From a virus, in UHGV virus genome UHGV-0210052: a DNA stretch of 38,615 nucleotides. The stretch is one strand, 5' to 3'. The notes beneath the pieces are model-generated. The model had not been told where the DNA came from. It searched no databases and saw only the letters and a program-made list of their open reading frames with translations. The stretch's first letter is position 1, and every line of letters begins with the position of its first letter. Shown here one piece after another: positions 1-38,615 of the stretch. The position numbers and the translations under genes were made by a program.

Positions 1-282
1 ATGAAGCTAAACATCGACCTCGGCAAATACGTTATCACCGGAACCAAACACGATCTGATTCTTAGCGAAAGAGGAATTATCAAAGAAGGCGAGAATGCAG
101 GGAAAGAAACACTAAGTCGTATCGGTTATTACAGCAAGTTTGAGCATCTGGTTAAAGAGTTATGCAACCGTGAAATCCTGTTATCTCAGGCGCAGACGCT
201 ACAGGATATTAAGCAGCATATCGAGACTTTAGGTGTGTCACTCAGCATGGCTATTGACCAGTTCGTGGAGAGTAAATCATGA
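1..282 (+). CDS. hypothetical early-left (ea) protein, 93 aa
   Basis: ORF starts at base 1 (ATG); same strand as the ea operon; stop overlaps next start (ATGA); no recognisable motif. Confidence 0.4.
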
Positions 283-443
283 GAGGACTTGCATACAATC
301 CCGGCATTCTTCCGGCAGAAATGATTATTCGCCAACGCGTAAATCCAATGCCATCGAGAGAGGAATTGCTTAAAAGAAATTCTTTTCCATCAGTGAATCA
401 AAACAAATATCTGAATGCGATGTTGCGGAGTGGGAAGAAATGA
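279..443 (+). CDS. small hypothetical protein, 54 aa
   Basis: Below track size cutoff; ATG overlaps upstream TGA (ATGA) and its stop overlaps the next ATG, a translational-coupling chain. Confidence 0.3.
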
Positions 444-829
444 AACAAATGTCACTAATTGAGATGGATGGATTTCTTAAAGGTAAATGCATCCCAAGTG
501 ATTTAAAGGTTAACGAAACAAACGCTGAATATCTGGTGCGTAAATTTGCTGAAGCGGAGGCCAAGTGCGCGGCGCTGGCGGCGGAGAATGCAAAGCTGAA
601 GGATTACCTGGCCCCTATAGGGCTGAAGGTTGAAGGGACTCCAGCCACCGACACTTTCCTGGATGAAGTCCGGGCGCAGGGCGTGGAGATGCTGGCAAAA
701 AATCATCAGAGTATCGTCAATGCACTTAAGGGAGATTCTTTATTTTCTGATGGTGAATACCGACATGCAGCTATTGTTTCCGCAGCTGTATATTTCGCTG
801 CAGAGCTTCGCAAAGGAGGCAACCAGTGA
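440..829 (+). CDS. hypothetical ea protein, 129 aa
   Basis: Intact ORF; coiled-coil-like Ala/Glu-rich middle; stop overlaps next GTG start. Confidence 0.5.
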
Positions 830-1470
830 GTAACCGTTTTTACATGATGTGCTTGCGTGAAACTGTGGGTAATAACGCCTCATTCCATTGCCATAACGGT
901 AATGGTTACAGTTCTGATATCGATCGAGCACATGTTTACACGCAGGAAGAAGCCCAAAAAGCCTGGAATTGTGGTCGAGATATCGATCAGCCTGTTTGCG
1001 CTGATAGCGTGGATGCAATGGCTGTGTGGCACGTTGATTGCCAGTACATCCCTACAGAAAGCCTGATTGAGTCAGATTGCACTGCGTATGTGGCCTACAA
1101 AAAAGGTAGCTGGAACGGCAACGATGTTTACTGGCTTCAACACGGTGGATTGCCAACAGATGACTTCAGTAAAGCGACCATCTTTAGCGTCGCCAACAAA
1201 AACGAACCAGGAATAGTTTGGTTGCCATTTTCCATTGCTGATGCAGCAAAGCGCCGGACGTTCAATATCAATAACTTTAATCGCAGAACAATGGTTCAGG
1301 GCGCAGGTTTGGTCATGCCTGACTGGTTGAAAGAGCAGAACAGAAGAAAGAAGTCGCGAAGCGGGAAGGTGCGTTGGAATTGTCCGCATTGCGGAAAAAT
1401 AACCTGGCAGTACAGCCCATATGATTTTGAAGGCTGTAGTGATTACAACTGTGAAGAATGGCGAGAATGA
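826..1470 (+). CDS. hypothetical Cys-rich protein, 214 aa
   Basis: GTG start with AAGGAGG SD 7 nt upstream; C-terminal CPHCG...C..C cluster suggests a zinc ribbon. Confidence 0.5.
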   Translation: MSNRFYMMCLRETVGNNASFHCHNGNGYSSDIDRAHVYTQEEAQKAWNCGRDIDQPVCADSVDAMAVWHVDCQYIPTESLIESDCTAYVAYKKGSWNGNDVYWLQHGGLPTDDFSKATIFSVANKNEPGIVWLPFSIADAAKRRTFNINNFNRRTMVQGAGLVMPDWLKEQNRRKKSRSGKVRWNCPHCGKITWQYSPYDFEGCSDYNCEEWRE

Positions 1471-2165
1471 AAATTGACTATCAGGCACTGCGTGAAAAGG
1501 CAGAGAAAGCAACGTGTGGTGTGTGGTCGCTCGAATATGGAAAGGGCCGATTTGATGGTGATGATGCACTAATTCATCGTGAAGTTGCTGGATATATTCC
1601 TATTTGCAGAATTGAAGGAGCGCATCCAGAAAGCGGTTTCGATGAAGATTTCCAAATGGAACAGCAGGCCAACGCTGAATTCATCGCCGCAGCCAATCCG
1701 GCTACCGTCTTGGCGCTGCTGGGCGAGCTGGAAACAGCAAAAAAGCGCATAGCAGAACTGGAAGCCGAACCTGTAAGCCAAACTTGCAAGTTGCCAGTTA
1801 ATACACCTTGCCAAGATGCGCCAGCCCATATCTGGCTGCAAACGGCTGGAGTATGGCCAGAAGATGGCGAGTTAAGCGAATTAACGTGGTGCAGCCACAA
1901 TCAGCACCATGATGACACGCTATATGTTCGAGCTGACCTTGTGAATGGCAACTCTCCGGTAACTCCGGATGGTTGGATAAGCTGTAGTGAGCGAATGCCG
2001 GATAAGTTAATTCCGGTAATGGTCATGTATGAAGACGGTGAGATGTGGTCTGCAATGTGGAATGGTAATCGCTGGGATGATGGCACCGAATATCCGGATC
2101 CGCACTCAGTTACGCACTGGCGTGAAATGCCAGCAGCACCTAAGCAGGAGGTTAACCGTGGCTAA
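1458..2165 (+). CDS. Ead/Ea22-like protein with DUF551-like C-terminal domain
   Basis: N-terminal ALREKAEKATCG...ANAEFIAAANPATVLALLGELE matches the Ea22-like family of lambdoid prophages as recalled; alternative start ATG 1467. Confidence 0.6.
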   Translation: MARMKIDYQALREKAEKATCGVWSLEYGKGRFDGDDALIHREVAGYIPICRIEGAHPESGFDEDFQMEQQANAEFIAAANPATVLALLGELETAKKRIAELEAEPVSQTCKLPVNTPCQDAPAHIWLQTAGVWPEDGELSELTWCSHNQHHDDTLYVRADLVNGNSPVTPDGWISCSERMPDKLIPVMVMYEDGEMWSAMWNGNRWDDGTEYPDPHSVTHWREMPAAPKQEVNRG

Positions 2166-2442
2166 CCTGCAACTTGCCGTTAAAGGTGAATATTTCGACC
2201 AGATGAAGTCATACGAGAAAACGGAAGAGTATCGCCTGTGTAATGATTACTGGAAAAAGCGAATTATGTTCCGGAAGTATGACCGCCTGATTATCACAAA
2301 GGGATATCCGAAGCGCGACGATTCCAGTCGCAGAATTGATGTTCCGTATGGTGGATATGAAATCAAAACAATCACACATCCGCACTTCGGTGATAAACCG
2401 GTAAAGGTGTTCGCGATAAAGGTGAATATCAGCAATGAATAA
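2158..2442 (+). CDS. hypothetical protein, 94 aa
   Basis: GTG start at 2158 with AGGAGG SD at 2146-2151; the track's 2029 start lies inside the upstream gene. Confidence 0.45.
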   Translation: MANLQLAVKGEYFDQMKSYEKTEEYRLCNDYWKKRIMFRKYDRLIITKGYPKRDDSSRRIDVPYGGYEIKTITHPHFGDKPVKVFAIKVNISNE

Positions 2443-2443
2443 C

Positions 2444-2473
2444 AATCCTCGCACTCGCGGGGATTTCTTTTAT
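2444..2473 (+). terminator. intrinsic terminator-like hairpin
   Basis: 9 bp stem (AATCCTCGC/GCGGGGATT, one G-U) with 4 nt loop followed by TCTTTTAT. Confidence 0.45.
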
Positions 2474-2501
2474 CTGAACTCGCTACGGCGAGTTTTGTTT
2501 T

Positions 2502-2813
2502 ATGGAGATGATTATGGCCTGTTCAACATTCAACCATCTAACGTTACAGAAATACCAGACAGACCCTGAAGATTTATGCTCACTGTGTGGCGGAAATCAT
2601 GGTAAAGCCGCCATGATCGAATGTAAGGACAAAATCCACATTTGCCTTAATTGCGTTGATGTCCTCGTTGATATCAAAAATGAGAGAGAAGATAAAAAGC
2701 GTAGCGAGGCTGTTCGCGCCTTAGATTCATGGATGCGGGATGGATATAGTGCCGCGCAAATTTATGACTTAGCAATATCAAAAGGAGAAATACCAGGAGT
2801 GCGCATCGAATAA
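2502..2813 (+). CDS. hypothetical Cys-rich protein, 103 aa
   Basis: Intact ORF with CxxC ... CxxC pattern; followed by a terminator. Confidence 0.45.
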   Translation: MEMIMACSTFNHLTLQKYQTDPEDLCSLCGGNHGKAAMIECKDKIHICLNCVDVLVDIKNEREDKKRSEAVRALDSWMRDGYSAAQIYDLAISKGEIPGVRIE

Positions 2814-2854
2814 GACGTAACCAACATTCGAATTGAAGAACTGAAAGAACACCA

Positions 2855-2878
2855 AGCCGCCTGATGGCGGTTTTTTAT
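2855..2878 (+). terminator. rho-independent terminator at end of ea gene block
   Basis: AGCCGCC-TGAT-GGCGGTT hairpin followed by TTTTTATTG. Confidence 0.55.
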
Positions 2879-2886
2879 TGCCTGAT

Positions 2887-2902
2887 TTGCAGGTTCGATT
2901 CC
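2887..2902 (+). other. tRNA-Arg (argW) T-arm-like fragment upstream of torI
   Basis: TTGCAGGTTCGATTCC matches the T-stem/loop of E. coli tRNA-Arg(CCU) as recalled; identity ends after CC. Confidence 0.4.
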
Positions 2903-2921
2903 CTATTCGGAGATAGCACTC

Positions 2922-3122
2922 ATGCAACACGAACTACAACCTGATTCACTGGTTGATTTGAAATTCATCATGGCTGATACTGGCTTCGGTAAAACCTTCA
3001 TCTACGACCGGATTAAGTCCGGCGACCTGCCAAAAGCCAAAGTTATCCACGGGCGAGCAAGATGGTTATATCGTGACCATTGTGAATTCAAAAATAAGCT
3101 CTTAAGCCGCGCCAATGGGTAA
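2922..3122 (+). CDS. torI: TorI-like excisionase / recombination directionality factor, 66 aa
   Basis: Protein matches, from memory, the 66 aa TorI excisionase of the KplE1/CPS-53 prophage; lies immediately upstream of attP core and int. Confidence 0.7.
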   Translation: MQHELQPDSLVDLKFIMADTGFGKTFIYDRIKSGDLPKAKVIHGRARWLYRDHCEFKNKLLSRANG

Positions 3123-3137
3123 AATAGCGGGTAAAAT
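3117..3137 (+). repeat. two direct GGGTAAAAT repeats at torI stop (putative arm-type recombinase sites)
   Basis: GGGTAAAAT at 3117-3125 and 3129-3137; same motif recurs at 3327-3371. Confidence 0.45.
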
Positions 3138-3195
3138 ATTTCTCACATCTAAAAAACACCATTCAAATCAATCCCCTGCCTCGTCAAGTAGATGT

Positions 3196-3210
3196 CTGCA
3201 GGGGACACCA
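3196..3210 (+). other. attP core: identity to 3-prime end of tRNA-Arg argW
   Basis: CTGCAGGGGACACCA equals T-stem 3-prime half, acceptor 3-prime strand, discriminator and CCA of argW as recalled; flanked by CCCCTGC/GCAGGGG inverted repeat; lies between torI and int. Confidence 0.6.
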
Positions 3211-3326
3211 TTTATCAGTTCGCTCCCATCCGTACCAGTCCGCAAAATCCCCTGAATATCAAGCCTTACGTATATTCACGGTTCGTCATGGTTCGCGTCA
3301 GATCGTTGACAGCCGCACTCCATGAC

Positions 3327-3371
3327 GGGTAAAAAGTGGATAAAATAATTTTACCCACCGGATTTTTACCC
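3327..3371. repeat. GGGTAAAA motif cluster abutting int start codon
   Basis: GGGTAAAAA at 3327-3335 direct; TTTTACCC at 3349-3356 and 3364-3371 inverted; last copy ends 1 nt before int ATG. Confidence 0.45.
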
Positions 3372-4529
3372 ATGCTCACCGTTAAGCAGATTGAAGCAGC
3401 AAAGCCGAAAGAAAAACCATACCGCCTACTCGATGGTAATGGCCTGTACCTTTATGTCCCTGTATCAGGGAAAAAGGTATGGCAGCTTCGCTACAAGATT
3501 GACGGTAAGGAGAAAATCCTGACTGTCGGAAAATATCCGCTTATGACTTTGCAGGAAGCAAGGGATAAGGCATGGACTGCGAGGAAAGACATCTCGGTTG
3601 GCATCGATCCGGTAAAGGCGAAAAAGTCTTCGTCTAGCAACAATTCATTTAGTGCGATTTACAAGGAATGGTACGAGCACAAGAAGCAAGTCTGGTCAGT
3701 AGGCTATGCAACTGAACTTGCCAAAATGTTTGATGACGACATTTTACCCATCATCGGCGGTCTTGAGATTCAGGATATTGAGCCGATGCAACTGCTGGAA
3801 GTAATCCGCAGATTTGAAGATCGCGGTGCAATGGAGCGAGCCAACAAAGCCCGCAGAAGATGCGGCGAGGTTTTTCGTTACGCTATTGTCACTGGTAGGG
3901 CTAAATATAACCCGGCACCTGACCTTGCTGACGCCATGAAGGGATACCGCAAGAAGAACTTCCCGTTTTTACCTGCCGACCAGATCCCGGCATTCAACAA
4001 AGCACTTGCAACATTTTCAGGAAGTATCGTATCGCTCATTGCGACCAAAGTTTTACGCTACACAGCCCTAAGAACGAAAGAGCTTCGTTCCATGCAATGG
4101 AAGAACGTCGATTTTGAAAACAGGATTATCACCATCGACGCCAGTGTGATGAAGGGACGCAAAATTCATGTTGTCCCGATGTCAGACCAGGTGGTTGAAC
4201 TTCTCACTACGCTAAGCTCAATCACTAAACCAGTATCAGAGTTTGTTTTTGCCGGGCGCAACGATAAGAAAAAGCCAATCTGCGAGAACGCGGTATTGCT
4301 TGTGATCAAACAAATCGGCTATGAGGGTCTGGAAAGCGGTCACGGATTCAGGCATGAATTCAGCACGATTATGAACGAGCACGAATGGCCTGCTGACGCT
4401 ATTGAAGTGCAACTTGCACATGCCAACGGCGGATCTGTGCGCGGGATTTACAACCATGCTCAGTATCTAGATAAGCGCAGAGAAATGATGCAGTGGTGGG
4501 CTGACTGGATTGATGAAAAGGTGGAGTGA
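3372..4529 (+). CDS. intS: tyrosine integrase, IntS (CPS-53/KplE1) type, 385 aa
   Basis: From MLTVKQIEAAKPKEK the protein matches K-12 IntS as recalled; C-terminal R...HGFRH...Y catalytic motifs; track GTG 3336 start rejected. Confidence 0.9.
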   Translation: MLTVKQIEAAKPKEKPYRLLDGNGLYLYVPVSGKKVWQLRYKIDGKEKILTVGKYPLMTLQEARDKAWTARKDISVGIDPVKAKKSSSSNNSFSAIYKEWYEHKKQVWSVGYATELAKMFDDDILPIIGGLEIQDIEPMQLLEVIRRFEDRGAMERANKARRRCGEVFRYAIVTGRAKYNPAPDLADAMKGYRKKNFPFLPADQIPAFNKALATFSGSIVSLIATKVLRYTALRTKELRSMQWKNVDFENRIITIDASVMKGRKIHVVPMSDQVVELLTTLSSITKPVSEFVFAGRNDKKKPICENAVLLVIKQIGYEGLESGHGFRHEFSTIMNEHEWPADAIEVQLAHANGGSVRGIYNHAQYLDKRREMMQWWADWIDEKVE

Positions 4530-4713
4530 TCGATCTTAACCACTATCGGATAGTACAAAGCTTTGTGTGCCTCGTTCATGCCTCACATTACCTGGCAATC
4601 ATCAAATTCACCAGAACGTTCATAAATCGTCTTTGTGATCTGCTTCACTGTTAGACGTAATACTTTTTGCAGTTATTTTATAATCATAGAAATGCTCATC
4701 ATGAGCAGTGAGT

Positions 4714-4744
4714 TGGTGATCTGCGCTGGTAGCCCTGCTATAAT
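4714..4744 (+). promoter_or_regulatory. candidate promoter for acyltransferase gene
   Basis: TATAAT at 4739-4744 with TTGGTG at 4714-4719 (19 bp spacer, suboptimal). Confidence 0.3.
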
Positions 4745-4762
4745 CCTTTGAAATTTTATCTC

Positions 4763-5902
4763 ATGGTGTGCATTATGATCTTTGAGGCGCAAAGTCTTTA
4801 TTTATATTTTTTGTCTCTTTTAGCCGTTGTGTTATGTATTACACTATTGACACGATATAACTATTTTTCTCACATCAACTTTGCAAGTAACAGGTATTTC
4901 TTTATAGACGGATTGCGTGGGATAGCTGCGTTCAGCGTTCTTATTAATCACGGCGCTCATACAATTATTACCAATGGAGTTCAGCCCATATTTATAGACT
5001 TCACAAAATACTCCATCACAGGGAATATGGGTAGCTTCGGTGTACAGATTTTCTTTTGCATTACAGGATTTTTGTTCTTTGATAAATTAATAAAAGGAAA
5101 TAATACATTTGACTGGAATAAATTTTATGTTGCTCGGATAAAAAGACTCGTTCCTCTATATATGCTTACTGCGCTTTTGGTGGCAATTTTAGCTATTATA
5201 TTATCCGGCAGTTCAGCAAGGCTTAACTTTGTTGATTTTTCAAGCTTCCTAAATTTTTTTGGGTTTGGATTTTTGGGCACAGAAATCTTCATTGGCTCTT
5301 TTAACGCATCAGGATTAAATGCGGTGATATGGACTCTACCGTATGAATGGAGGTTTTATTTAATTTTCCCTCTATTATCGATTGCCATCGCAAGCAAGAG
5401 ATATGGTATGTTTGCCATTTCCGCAGTAATGTTACTTGCGGCAAGAGACTTTATGACAGAATTTGTTTTGTGGCCATATTTTATAGTTGGCGCCTTAGGT
5501 GCATATATATTCAATAAATCTTATGTTAACATTGATGATAAATATTGGATATTCTCATTCATTTCTTTCATAGCTATTTTTGTTATCTTCTGCTCTTCCG
5601 CAGACAGCTATGGACGAATCAGATTTGCATGCATTTCATTACTATTTATAATGGTACTTATAACTAAACCAAAAATATTTAAAATAAAATCATTAGTTTA
5701 TTTAGGTGAGGCAAGTTATAGTCTTTATTTGCTGCATTTGCCTATCATGGCTATAGTAATGAGAACAATAAATAATTTCTATAACCTATCGAGCATGTCT
5801 ACTGTGAATTACACAATTTTGATAGCCTTTATTGCATCTCTGTGTAGCGTTATTTCCTGTATCTGTTTTAAGAATTTTGAGTGGAGATTCATTAAAAAGT
5901 AA
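4763..5902 (+). CDS. membrane acyltransferase family 3 (OafA/Oac-like), candidate O-antigen acetyltransferase
   Basis: Multi-TM protein with R...FIDGLRGIAAFSVLINHG acyltransferase_3 motif; very AT-rich versus flanks; start uncertain (track TTG 4748, ATG 4763 or 4775). Confidence 0.75.
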   Translation: MVCIMIFEAQSLYLYFLSLLAVVLCITLLTRYNYFSHINFASNRYFFIDGLRGIAAFSVLINHGAHTIITNGVQPIFIDFTKYSITGNMGSFGVQIFFCITGFLFFDKLIKGNNTFDWNKFYVARIKRLVPLYMLTALLVAILAIILSGSSARLNFVDFSSFLNFFGFGFLGTEIFIGSFNASGLNAVIWTLPYEWRFYLIFPLLSIAIASKRYGMFAISAVMLLAARDFMTEFVLWPYFIVGALGAYIFNKSYVNIDDKYWIFSFISFIAIFVIFCSSADSYGRIRFACISLLFIMVLITKPKIFKIKSLVYLGEASYSLYLLHLPIMAIVMRTINNFYNLSSMSTVNYTILIAFIASLCSVISCICFKNFEWRFIKK

Positions 5903-33639: not shown

Positions 33640-34356
33640 ATGGAAAATAAAAAATCACTGACGACAGAACAGCTCGAAGACGCTAAGCGGCTTAAGGCTT
33701 TGTATGAGTCAAAAAAGAAAGAATTGGGAATAACCCAATACTCAATCGCTGATGAACTGGGTATCACCCAAGGAGCGGTAGGGCATTATCTTAATGGCAG
33801 AAACGCGCTAAACGTTGAGGTTGCATCTGGTTTTGCACGATTGTTGCAAGTCTCAATTGCTGATTTTAGCCAGTCAATTGCTGCCAAGGTTGCAGAACAG
33901 GCAGAAAGCCTTAAGAGCGATGCCAACGTAAGGTATGCAGGGGAATACAGAGCAGGAAAGAGGTATCCGGTGTTAAGCAGTATCCAGGCTGGCTCGTGGT
34001 GTGAAGCATGCGAACCATACACCATTAAAGACATAGATGTTTGGCTTGAGTCTGACGCGCATATTCAAGGTAATGCGTTTTGGCTTAAAGTGGAAGGTGA
34101 TTCAATGACGGCACCGGTTGGGTTAAGCATTCCAGAGGGAACATTCGTTCTTTTCGATACCGGAAGGGAGGCGATCAACGGCAGCTTGGTCATAGCAAAA
34201 CTTTCTGACTCTAACGAAGCAACATTCAAGAAGCTGATAATCGACGGCGGAAATAAATACCTCAAGGGACTTAATCCTGCATGGCCTCTCGTGCCAATCA
34301 ATGGAAACTGCAAGATTATAGGCGTTGCAATTGAGACAAAACTAAGGCTGGTTTGA
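33640..34356 (+). CDS. cI: CI repressor (HTH N-terminus, LexA-like S24 C-terminus), 238 aa
   Basis: LTTEQLEDAKRLKALYESKKKELG, Ser/Lys dyad context (EGDSM ... FKKL); resembles lambda CI as recalled. Confidence 0.9.
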   Translation: MENKKSLTTEQLEDAKRLKALYESKKKELGITQYSIADELGITQGAVGHYLNGRNALNVEVASGFARLLQVSIADFSQSIAAKVAEQAESLKSDANVRYAGEYRAGKRYPVLSSIQAGSWCEACEPYTIKDIDVWLESDAHIQGNAFWLKVEGDSMTAPVGLSIPEGTFVLFDTGREAINGSLVIAKLSDSNEATFKKLIIDGGNKYLKGLNPAWPLVPINGNCKIIGVAIETKLRLV

Positions 34357-36610: not shown

Positions 36611-36899
36611 TAAGCGTGAAATATCGCAAATAATCGCAAGTTTTACTGATGAAGATTACGAACGAATCAACAGTGAAGTTGATCGCCTCTGCAAACGTTG
36701 CGACCCAATAAGCGAAATGCTTCGCTCATATAAACCAGATGAACACACTAAGGACGCTATCGACTGGCTGGAAGATGATGACTGTAACTATCAGGAAAAA
36801 GCCGCTGAATGGTTCTGGGATGCAATAACCGAAAGAGTTAAGGCTGAATATGCCTTCGCAATATTCAAACGCAGACACATTTTTGGAGAAGCAGCATGA
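36588..36899 (+). CDS. hypothetical protein, 103 aa
   Basis: AGGAG SD before ATG 36588; directly upstream of recT. Confidence 0.5.
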   Translation: MMILTLNDKREISQIIASFTDEDYERINSEVDRLCKRCDPISEMLRSYKPDEHTKDAIDWLEDDDCNYQEKAAEWFWDAITERVKAEYAFAIFKRRHIFGEAA

Positions 36900-37807
36900 G
36901 CAATATCGTTGAATTCGTTAAACAGCAGGAGCAGTTATTCTGCGGAGCATTGACTGAACAGACGGTGACATGGGCTAAGGAAAGCCAGTTTGCAATTCAG
37001 TATTTCCAGAAAAACGATTACCTGGCTAAAACGGCACTGGCAAATCCGACCAGCGCACAGAACGCTATCATCAACGTTGCGGCGATCGGCATCACCTTAA
37101 ACCCGGCCAGCAAACTGGCTTATCTAGTTCCGCGCGACGGCATGGTTTGCCTTGATATCAGCTATATGGGATTGCTCCATATTGCAATGGAGTCTGGTGT
37201 TATCTCATGGGGTCAGGCAAAACTTGTTCATGCTAACGATACCTATGAGTCAAACGGGCTTGATAAAGCACCAACCCATAAATACAACGCCTTCGGTGAT
37301 CGTGGTGATATCGTTGGCGTTTACTGCACAGTTAAGACGCCAGCAGGTGATTATCTAACGGAAGAGATGAGTCTGGCTGAAATTGAGGCTGTAAGGAAAA
37401 CAAGCAAGGCGGCATTCAGCGATAAAGGACCATGGGTAAATCACTGGAATGAGATGGCGCGAAAGACGGTCGTAAAGCGTGCAAGCAAGTATTGGCCTAA
37501 GGCATCACGTCTTGATAGTGCTATTCACGTACTAAACGAAGAAGAAGGTGTATGGACTGAACCAGTTATGCCGCACAAATCAGAGGAAGATATCCGCGAA
37601 GATGAACGGAAACGCCAGCAGGAAATTATGGAAAAAGCACAACTTCTTTGTGATGAAATGGCTCAGGCAGAAAACATGGATGATTTGAAGCGATATTTTG
37701 CAGAAGCATATCGCCTGACATCTGGAATGAAATTGCAGCAGAACGTACAAGCCATTTACGCAGAATGCAAAGCGAAACTGGAGGTTGCCAGTGAGCAAAC
37801 TATATGA
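36896..37807 (+). CDS. recT: RecT-family single-strand annealing recombinase, 303 aa
   Basis: GPWVNHWNEMARKTVVKRASKYWP matches the Rac RecT motif GPWVTHWEEMAKKTAIRRLFKYLP as recalled. Confidence 0.85.
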   Translation: MSNIVEFVKQQEQLFCGALTEQTVTWAKESQFAIQYFQKNDYLAKTALANPTSAQNAIINVAAIGITLNPASKLAYLVPRDGMVCLDISYMGLLHIAMESGVISWGQAKLVHANDTYESNGLDKAPTHKYNAFGDRGDIVGVYCTVKTPAGDYLTEEMSLAEIEAVRKTSKAAFSDKGPWVNHWNEMARKTVVKRASKYWPKASRLDSAIHVLNEEEGVWTEPVMPHKSEEDIREDERKRQQEIMEKAQLLCDEMAQAENMDDLKRYFAEAYRLTSGMKLQQNVQAIYAECKAKLEVASEQTI

Positions 37808-38273
37808 AATTGCCAATGAATACGCAAAATTGATGGATTCAGATTTAGAACCAGAGATGATTGCTGACACAATAGAAGGCATGGAAGGAGAGTTTACCGA
37901 TAAAATAGAGCAACTTCTTGCCATTATTAAAAATGAATCTGGTTATGCTGAACGCCTCAAGGACGAGGCAAAGTCACTGAATGAACGAGCAGCAGTAATT
38001 CAAAATAAGATTGATAGCATTATGGCATATATAGCCTCATCGCTTGAAATGGTTGGCAAGAAAAAGATTAGAGCAGGTATTCACCAGGTAACAATCCGCA
38101 AACCGTCAGAAACTGTAGAAATCATCGACTCAAGCGCCCTTCCTCCTGAATACGTTGAGTTTGAAACGACAATTAAAGCCGACAAGTTGGCAATCAAGCA
38201 CCAACTAAAAGCAGGAATAAATATCCCAGGCGCTCAACTCAAGGTTGGGAAACCTTCACTTCTTATCAAATAA
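37791..38273 (+). CDS. Gp157-like protein (Siphovirus Gp157 family), 160 aa
   Basis: GTG 37791 with GGAGG SD; KLYEIANEY ... VEIIDSSALPPEY pattern typical of Gp157-family proteins next to RecT/Sak recombinases. Confidence 0.55.
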   Translation: MSKLYEIANEYAKLMDSDLEPEMIADTIEGMEGEFTDKIEQLLAIIKNESGYAERLKDEAKSLNERAAVIQNKIDSIMAYIASSLEMVGKKKIRAGIHQVTIRKPSETVEIIDSSALPPEYVEFETTIKADKLAIKHQLKAGINIPGAQLKVGKPSLLIK

Positions 38274-38284
38274 CGGTATCGCCT

Positions 38285-38599
38285 ATGAAAAAGACTCCAT
38301 GGGAGAAATGGGAAGTCGATTTCTTGCGCGAAGTGGCGGCGACAATGCCAGTTGAAGTTATCGCTGAAAAACTGGAAAGGACTGAAAAAGCAGTAATGGC
38401 GAAAGCAACAAGGATTGGAGCTGACATTGTTAGCCGACTTCGTGGAAGACGATGGACAAGAGCCGAAGTATCACTTTTCGGTAAGTTCTCCGCAGAAGAA
38501 ATAGCAATTGCAACCTGCCGCTCAATTTATTCAGTAAGGGCTATGCGATACAAGCTAAAAAAACTCGATGAAGAAAGAGCAGGCATACGAATAAATTAA
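38285..38599 (+). CDS. hypothetical protein, 104 aa
   Basis: Intact ORF; continues the early-left operon toward window end. Confidence 0.45.
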   Translation: MKKTPWEKWEVDFLREVAATMPVEVIAEKLERTEKAVMAKATRIGADIVSRLRGRRWTRAEVSLFGKFSAEEIAIATCRSIYSVRAMRYKLKKLDEERAGIRIN

Positions 38600-38615
38600 C
38601 ATGGAATAATTAACA

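Follow-up and report, generated by a model that had tools for sequence, protein, structure and literature searches.

A phage early-region protein with a duplicated domain and a predicted C-terminal zinc ribbon is carried as a stand-alone accessory cassette

The virus genome UHGV-0210052, a stretch of 38,615 nucleotides (nt) analyzed here in full and called the window below, encodes a 214-amino-acid (214-aa) protein directly upstream of a gene of the Ea22-like/DUF551 class. We find that the 214-aa gene is a stand-alone accessory cassette of temperate phages and P1-like phage-plasmids, consisting of a Shine-Dalgarno (SD) sequence, the open reading frame (ORF), and the 5' end of an Ead/Ea22 gene. 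Its product is a cytoplasmic protein with an acidic double domain carrying a conserved set of polar residues, a basic linker, and a predicted four-cysteine (C4) zinc ribbon. It is a regular member of a catalogued, uncharacterized family (PHROG 2457) and is not new as an object. Its position beside the Ea22-like gene reflects module shuffling at a recombination boundary, the Ea22 5' end, and indicates no functional pair. The features on which these statements rest are as follows:

812-819, + strand: SD sequence AAAGGAGG, read from the sequence, 6 nt upstream of the GTG; left boundary of the conserved cassette
826-1470, + strand: gene of the 214-aa protein (PHROG 2457; P7 Upf87.6 family), from the ORF list and the PHROG match; GTG start, TGA stop at 1468-1470
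829-1044, + strand: repeat 1 (residues 2-73), with hairpin, helix, strand, helix, strand; conserved G15, G27, Y28, P56, D71, Q73
1078-1275, + strand: repeat 2 (residues 85-150), with elements in the same order as repeat 1; conserved G98, N99, D100, A117, R143
1246-1377, + strand: basic segment (residues 141-184), 13 K/R, isoelectric point (pI) 12; KRRTF strand and helix preceding the zinc ribbon
1372-1467, + strand: C4 zinc ribbon (residues 183-214), C186-P-H-C189-G, 14 residues, C204, 4 residues, C209
1467-1515, + strand: right-hand mosaic junction, the conserved Ead/Ea22 5' end (M-K/T-I-D-Y-Q-A-L-R-E...), equivalent to Sf6 bsq3

A conserved protein family with a duplicated domain

The preliminary description of this DNA had noted a 214-aa ORF with a strong SD that overlaps an Ea22-like gene, and both points hold. 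The GTG start overlaps the upstream stop as GTGA, and we judge it correct because homologues begin M-[SK]-[ND]-R-F-Y. At the other end, the stop overlaps the next ORF from either of its in-frame start codons, ATG 1458 or ATG 1467. Among 25 distinct near-identical alleles, the ratio of nonsynonymous to synonymous polymorphism (pN/pS) was 0.15, and on this basis the ORF is a real gene under purifying selection. A 165-aa ORF lying antisense within the gene (1072-1569, - strand) is without support as a gene and is most simply a shadow ORF of the + strand gene.

The full-length protein matched PHROG 2457 (E 2.8e-118, 394 bits), its residues 1-214 aligning to positions 1-220 of the 222-position profile, and 89 of 89 diverse relatives matched this family as well. 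All sources name its members hypothetical, as does PGAP. Scans against Pfam, NCBIfam, and PADLOC returned nothing above threshold for the protein or for 50 relatives, and no PADLOC model matched at E ≤ 0.1 for the 214-aa protein, the Ea22-like protein, or three neighbors. The earlier statement that the protein belongs to no recognized family is therefore right for these three collections and wrong for PHROG 2457, as it is for phage P7, whose Upf87.6 is 98% identical. Comparison with known anti-defense proteins (Lar, Ocr, Ard, Acr, and similar) found no qualifying similarity of sequence or fold, and a literature search for PHROG 2457, its gene names, or its accessions found no papers.

The family is large and widely distributed. 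A word-indexed search found 133 related clusters, all named hypothetical, and an exhaustive search with the profile gave 834 (clustered at 50% identity, E ≤ 1e-3), mostly of 200-230 aa. Copies at 95-99% identity occur in P7, SJ46 (J46_0095, 98% identical like the P7 copy), P1 variants, IME10, and phages converting to Shiga toxin (Stx) 2c. Many Vibrio phage copies are 36-46% identical, some of them annotated "putative zinc finger protein"; gp6 of Pseudomonas phage F116 is 27% identical, and Burkholderia phiE058 also carries a member. When one genome was taken per species, the 44 loci came from Enterobacterales, Acinetobacter, Alteromonas, Shewanella, Pseudomonas, Methyloprofundus, Colwellia, and Undibacterium. 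Among complete Escherichia coli genomes, 279 of 5426 (~5%) have the gene, and 181 of its 289 places are plasmid-borne. The plasmid examples listed are records of ~95 kb, a size that would be typical of P1-like phage-plasmids. Members such as P7 Upf87.6, SJ46 J46_0095, F116 gp6, and the Vibrio H20-like protein have the same length and the same C4 motif as the 214-aa protein. The copy here sits in the ea region of a P22-like phage, and those of P7 and SJ46 sit in P1-like phage-plasmids; nothing differs in kind.

Truncated, frameshifted, and chimeric alleles of the family also exist (e.g., P0247, P0248, P0184). In P0248, a DUF551-type C-terminus (...THWMPLPAAP) follows residues 1-44 of the 214-aa protein; in P0177, the module of basic linker and zinc ribbon is preceded by a phrog_874 N-terminus; and P0200, 150 aa long, has a single repeat and the ribbon. 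Homologues that seemed to have one domain only (67-150 aa) were considered as an independent family and rejected, being truncated, frameshifted, or chimeric alleles. We likewise discarded the idea of informative domain fusions: the extensions of the longer relatives (P0189, P0202, P0210, P0197) have no Pfam family, and only P0189 matches another PHROG, itself of unknown function.

The preliminary description had suggested structure prediction and a fold search as a check, and these yielded a confident model with no match to a solved fold. The AlphaFold2 model, built on 50 relatives, has a mean predicted local distance difference test score (pLDDT) of 92.6 and a predicted template modeling score (pTM) of 0.80. 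In repeat 1 it places a hairpin (5-14/17-22), a helix (40-49), a strand (54-58), a second helix (59-64), and a strand (67-71). In repeat 2 it places a hairpin (88-97/100-103), a strand (130-134), a helix (135-141), and a strand (142-145). Profile-profile comparison of the two repeats with hhalign on a diverse alignment (A3) gave a probability of 98.4% and E 7e-15, against E 0.18 for a reversed control; the signal was weak with a narrower alignment (A1; E 6e-4). From the A3 comparison, we therefore conclude that the protein is a tandem duplication of a ~70-residue domain. A Foldseek search of the model against the PDB found nothing, with a best E of 0.5 and a template modeling (TM) score of about 0.13. 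Matches in BFVD (probability up to 1.0) were uncharacterized phage proteins only, mostly of 55-135 aa and covering one repeat. The predicted double domain is thus without a characterized structural relative among the PDB and BFVD comparisons.

In the 89 diverse members, G15, G27, Y28, P56, D71, Q73, G98, N99, A117, R143, C186, C189, and C204 are at least 90% conserved, and D100 and C209 are conserved in ~84%. Residues 1-140 are acidic (pI 4.7). Residues 140-184 have a pI of 12.0, and a charge calculation gives a net charge of about +8.5 over residues 141-190 across the family.

The zinc-ribbon-like cluster that had been noted at the C-terminus is borne out by the alignments. Four conserved cysteines stand in a two-knuckle arrangement (CPxCG ... 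Cx4C), with C186, C189, and C204 conserved at 97-100% and C209 at 84-96% in the 50 and 89 aligned relatives. In this region, the model has short predicted strands at 182-185 and 192-195 with a pLDDT of 84-90. All named zinc-ribbon models scored below their cut-offs: DUF7575 at 12.6 bits (28.5), HVO_2753_ZBP at 12.2 (33.2), and IS1_IS1595_Zn at 15 (28). Among PDB chains, sequence and profile searches picked up generic similarities to zinc knuckles and ribosomal zinc ribbons and nothing else. With the family profile, residues 153-206 aligned to eL43/L37ae at a sub-threshold E of 0.02-0.05; their alignments to eL42 and uS14 were weaker and below significance, and Ribosomal_L37ae was not found in the Pfam scans. 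In the rRNA-binding proteins eL43/L37ae, eL42, and uS14 type Z, as in the 214-aa protein, a similarly spaced CxxCG...C..C comes after a basic helix; the N-terminal 150 residues of the 214-aa protein are without counterpart in them. This similarity is a resemblance in kind, that of a basic zinc ribbon, and not family membership. Lambda Ea8.5 and the Lar-like restriction alleviation proteins are also cysteine-containing early accessory proteins from the same genome regions. They show no sequence match in NCBIfam or Pfam, and the 214-aa protein is larger and differently built, with its double domain and C-terminal ribbon.

The N-terminal part had been described as rich in cysteine and histidine, which is true of this protein (10 Cys and 6 His in all) and of its closer subfamily but not of the wider family. 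In the subfamily (A1, at least 47% identity), C9 is conserved at 96%, H21 at 86%, C22 at 78%, H36 at 82%, and C/H72 at 92%. Across the wider family, the positions of C9, H21, C22, H36, and C72 hold D/S, W, A/G, E/Q/H, and C/H/M, respectively. With these residues replaced in the wide alignment, we rejected a second, family-wide metal site. A two-residue turn in the first hairpin would set C9 opposite C22. Among 138 sequences, both cysteines occurred in 40, only C9 in 16, only C22 in 3, and neither in 79, a co-occurrence that is confounded by phylogeny. A second metal site limited to the enterobacterial and Acinetobacter subfamily is possible.

An autonomous cassette at a mosaic boundary

The preliminary description had coupled the 214-aa protein to its Ea22-like neighbor, and this claim did not survive comparison with other loci. 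We compared 78 near-identical copies among IMG/VR loci, with per-position conservation computed for 77 loci at the left edge and 71 at the right edge. On the left, conservation begins abruptly at the SD (AAGGAGG), 13 nt before the GTG, and the DNA upstream is variable. The upstream genes differ, and identical junction nucleotides are read in two frames, giving products that end in ...RKGG[SN]Q or ...KEA[ST]SE before the stop. On the right, the conserved stretch takes in ~50 nt of the downstream gene before conservation drops. The downstream ORF starts MARM[TK]I[DN]YQxLR[ED]AAE in ~73 of the 78 loci. This shared start lasts ~16-20 aa and is followed by at least 8 different continuations; the DUF551 end seen in the window is shared by only 2 of the 78.

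The right-hand junction has an annotated equivalent in phage Sf6, where gene 21, an Ead/Ea22-like gene, carries the annotation "bsq3; boundary sequence" on its first 31 nt. In Sf6, the slot of the 214-aa gene is filled by the unrelated gene 22. Ead_Ea22 accounts for only 2 of 54 immediate neighbors in diverse species, and no family recurs more than twice. The arm of the genome also varies. Yersinia prophages have the family gene in the early-left (pL) arm before xis/int, and Acinetobacter and Klebsiella prophages have it in the early-right (pR) replication/nin arm, after cro/cII or replication genes. In a Vibrio phage, its neighbors are an exonuclease, a Gam-like gene, and a methyltransferase, and in F116 they are methyltransferases. 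A conserved partner gene was considered and rejected, as the Yersinia and Methyloprofundus loci have upstream genes unrelated to each other and the neighboring PHROGs and Pfams are heterogeneous. Within the window, start and stop codons overlap between adjacent genes throughout the block 279-2442, and the codon overlap with the Ea22-like gene is a general property of the operon. Module shuffling is therefore our conclusion, drawn from the divergent downstream ORFs, the bsq3 junction, and the unrelated neighbors elsewhere.

Proteins with ASCH-like similarity were also seen near family members. F116p07 (3327-4004 of locus L005), immediately upstream of the F116 member, belongs to phrog_874 and scored 17.1 bits for ASCH, below the cut-off. 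The Vibrio phage gene P2_0018 (2064-2729 of locus L004), three genes upstream of a family member, scored 23.1 bits against a cut-off of 21.2. In the window, the 94-aa ORF at 2158-2442 is phrog_625 without a Pfam match; it overlaps a region where RefSeq ST104 has an "ASCH domain-containing protein" (orf6) that may correspond to it. ASCH genes are frequent in the early regions of phages, and the recurrence of ASCH/PUA-like proteins near the family is therefore a lead only.

Possible functions

We tentatively favor, at somewhat less than even confidence, the reading that the 214-aa protein is a nucleic-acid-tethered early protein whose double domain presents a polar surface to a partner or ligand. 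The basic linker and zinc ribbon would anchor the protein on nucleic acid (DNA or RNA, of the phage or of the host). Its double domain, which is acidic, would then present a conserved polar surface (Y28, D71, Q73, N99, D100, R143) to a conserved partner or ligand, and the action would be timed early in infection or induction. Several points weigh against this tethering. The eL43 similarity is below significance, every Pfam zinc-ribbon match is below its cut-off, and no characterized homologue supports nucleic-acid binding. Zinc ribbons also mediate protein-protein contacts. Moreover, this reading assumes that the polar residues come together in a single site, and a location in the early region fits many functions.

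It is possible, though we regard it as rather doubtful, that the protein is an anti-defense or host-takeover inhibitor acting by protein binding alone. The double domain, with or without the ribbon, would block a host immune or DNA-processing protein, while the zinc ribbon would be structural and the basic linker would touch an acidic host surface. This is consistent with the content of accessory early regions, which hold anti-restriction and anti-RecBCD genes (Sf6 abc2 lies nearby, and a Gam-like gene and methyltransferases occur as neighbors), with the mobile-cassette behavior across P22-like, lambdoid, P1-like, Vibrio, and F116 phages, and with a protein of no recognizable enzymatic or DNA-binding family. 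However, the length and ~13 residues have been kept across phages of Gamma- and Betaproteobacteria at 25-60% identity, and together with the low pN/pS, this conservation looks less like that of a fast-evolving inhibitor of variable defense. No PADLOC-related or known anti-defense name was found for the protein, and a keyword search of the main text of a published phage accessory-gene screen found no related gene.

An enzymatic role is unlikely. Here, Y28, D71, Q73, N99, D100, and R143 would form an active site at the junction of the repeats, acting on DNA, RNA, or a nucleotide, with the ribbon positioning the substrate. These polar residues are nearly invariant in the 89 diverse members while their surroundings have drifted to 25-30% identity, and DNA methyltransferases, exonucleases, and ASCH-like proteins recur as neighbors in distant phages. 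Still, invariant Gly, Pro, and Ala positions are to be expected of a structural repeat in any case, and the active site would require the same assumed clustering of polar residues in space.

We consider it very improbable that the 214-aa and Ea22-like/DUF551 proteins form a translationally coupled functional pair, for example one acting on the lysis-lysogeny decision. The overlapping stop and start codons and the Ead/Ea22-type ORF that follows most near-identical copies would fit such a pair, as would the same adjacency in SJ46, in a Klebsiella prophage, and in P7, where the Ead/Ea22-like Upf88.3 comes after Upf87.6. Lambda and Stx Ea22 are reported to favor lysogeny by an unknown mechanism (PMC7093339, PMC10834534). 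Against this, the downstream ORFs share their first 16-20 residues only, this stretch is an annotated mosaic boundary, the Ea22-like N-terminus of Sf6 is preceded by an unrelated gene, Ead_Ea22 is a rare neighbor in other species, and codon overlaps are general in the operon. Finally, a chance ORF or decaying pseudogene without function, which the truncated, frameshifted, and chimeric alleles in databases might suggest, is effectively refuted by full-length conservation in hundreds of clusters, the low pN/pS, the strong SD, and the confident structure prediction.

Genomic setting and neighboring genes

The window is a whole phage genome of the P22-like (Lederbergvirus) type, circularly permuted and mosaic. 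Position 1 is exactly the ATG of the DUF5405 gene, and the early-left operon leaves the right end (38599-38615) and resumes at 1. No deposited phage covering at least 80% of the first 25 kb was found, and the best partial matches to this part were phiv205-1, CUS-3, Sf101, and Kapi1. The other features of this setting are as follows:

33640-34356, + strand: C2-type repressor, in the upstream part of the early-left layout
36896-37807, + strand: RecT
37785-38273, + strand: Gp157
1467-2165, + strand: Ead/Ea22-like + DUF551 gene; the mechanical ORF runs from ATG 1458, and ATG 1467 overlaps the upstream stop as ATGA
2922-3122, + strand: xis
3336-4529, + strand: tyrosine integrase
4748-5902, + strand: Acyl_transf_3 gene (E 6.4e-33), a membrane acyltransferase directly 3' of int and beside the tailspike gene

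From position 1, the packed genes are, in order, DUF5405, DUF2737, a 129-aa ORF, the 214-aa ORF, the Ea22-like ORF, a 94-aa ORF, and a 103-aa ORF. No promoter-like or terminator-like site was found within 279-2442, and no Rfam RNA family in 1-5000. Within the early-left operon, which is N-antiterminated, the 214-aa gene has the RecT recombination module on one side and xis/int on the other. Judging by its position, the Acyl_transf_3 site is presumably the slot that O-antigen-modifying conversion genes occupy in Sf6-like phages.

The neighbor of the 214-aa gene was correctly described as Ea22-like with DUF551. Ead_Ea22 (PF13935) matched at 76.5 bits against a cut-off of 27 (E 3.9e-21; residues 5-104, ~1470-1769), and DUF551 (PF04448) matched at 64.9 bits against a cut-off of 22 (E 1.2e-17; residues 172-229, profile 1-68 of 68, ~1971-2144). 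The start had been placed at 1458. The overlap with the 214-aa gene stands from either ATG, but the more probable start is ATG 1467 (MKIDYQ...), because the Pfam match starts at residue 5, Sf6 gp21 starts MSKIDYQALRE, and DNA similarity to Sf6 begins at ATTGACTATCAGG, position 1473. The 235-aa protein is an ordinary representative of the Ead_Ea22/DUF551 class. Ea22 variant V2 of Stx phages has these two Pfam domains, arranged in this order (PMC10834534). Over its N-terminal ~100 residues, the protein is a close match to Sf6 gp21, whereas the C-terminal domain differs from those of Sf6 gp21 and lambda Ea22, for which a nuclear magnetic resonance (NMR) structure of the C-terminal domain has been solved.

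On the other side of the cassette lies the 129-aa ORF (440-829, + strand), which matches PHROGs 614 and 492. It also matches phrog_368 over the C-terminal half, the Ea22-like ORF (1458-2165, + strand) matches phrog_368 over the N-terminal half, and modular Ead/Ea22-type pieces therefore flank the cassette on both sides. In the related loci, 21 of the 78 downstream ORFs also match the 129-aa ORF.

The ea region holds a second cysteine-containing ORF. This 103-aa ORF (2502-2813, + strand) belongs to PHROG 3680, of unknown function, has a CxxC...CxxC pattern, and resembles the ClpX C4 zinc finger at a sub-threshold level (E 0.014, 15.7 bits against a cut-off of 27). Two tandem terminator-like hairpins lie 5' of it, at 2444-2475 and 2476-2505, and another lies 3' of it at 2854-2883, just before xis.

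Implications

As an object, the gene is ordinary: it is one more copy, 97-99% identical, of a hypothetical gene that is already catalogued. What the analysis adds is the domain architecture, a model without a solved relative, the invariant residues, and an explanation of the gene's position as that of an autonomous cassette. It is possible, if on balance improbable, that PHROG 2457 represents an undescribed fold class, in which a duplicated ~70-residue domain with an invariant polar site and a basic zinc-ribbon nucleic-acid tether would serve a conserved early-infection function. If so, the family could be, for example, a new nucleic-acid-directed enzyme, a reader, or a broadly acting counter-defense factor, with a scope extending over temperate phages and P1-like phage-plasmids of Gamma- and Betaproteobacteria. 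Because the family is widespread and lies in early operons of medically relevant phages, including Stx-converting phages and P1-like phage-plasmids, it is a reasonable target for a function screen.

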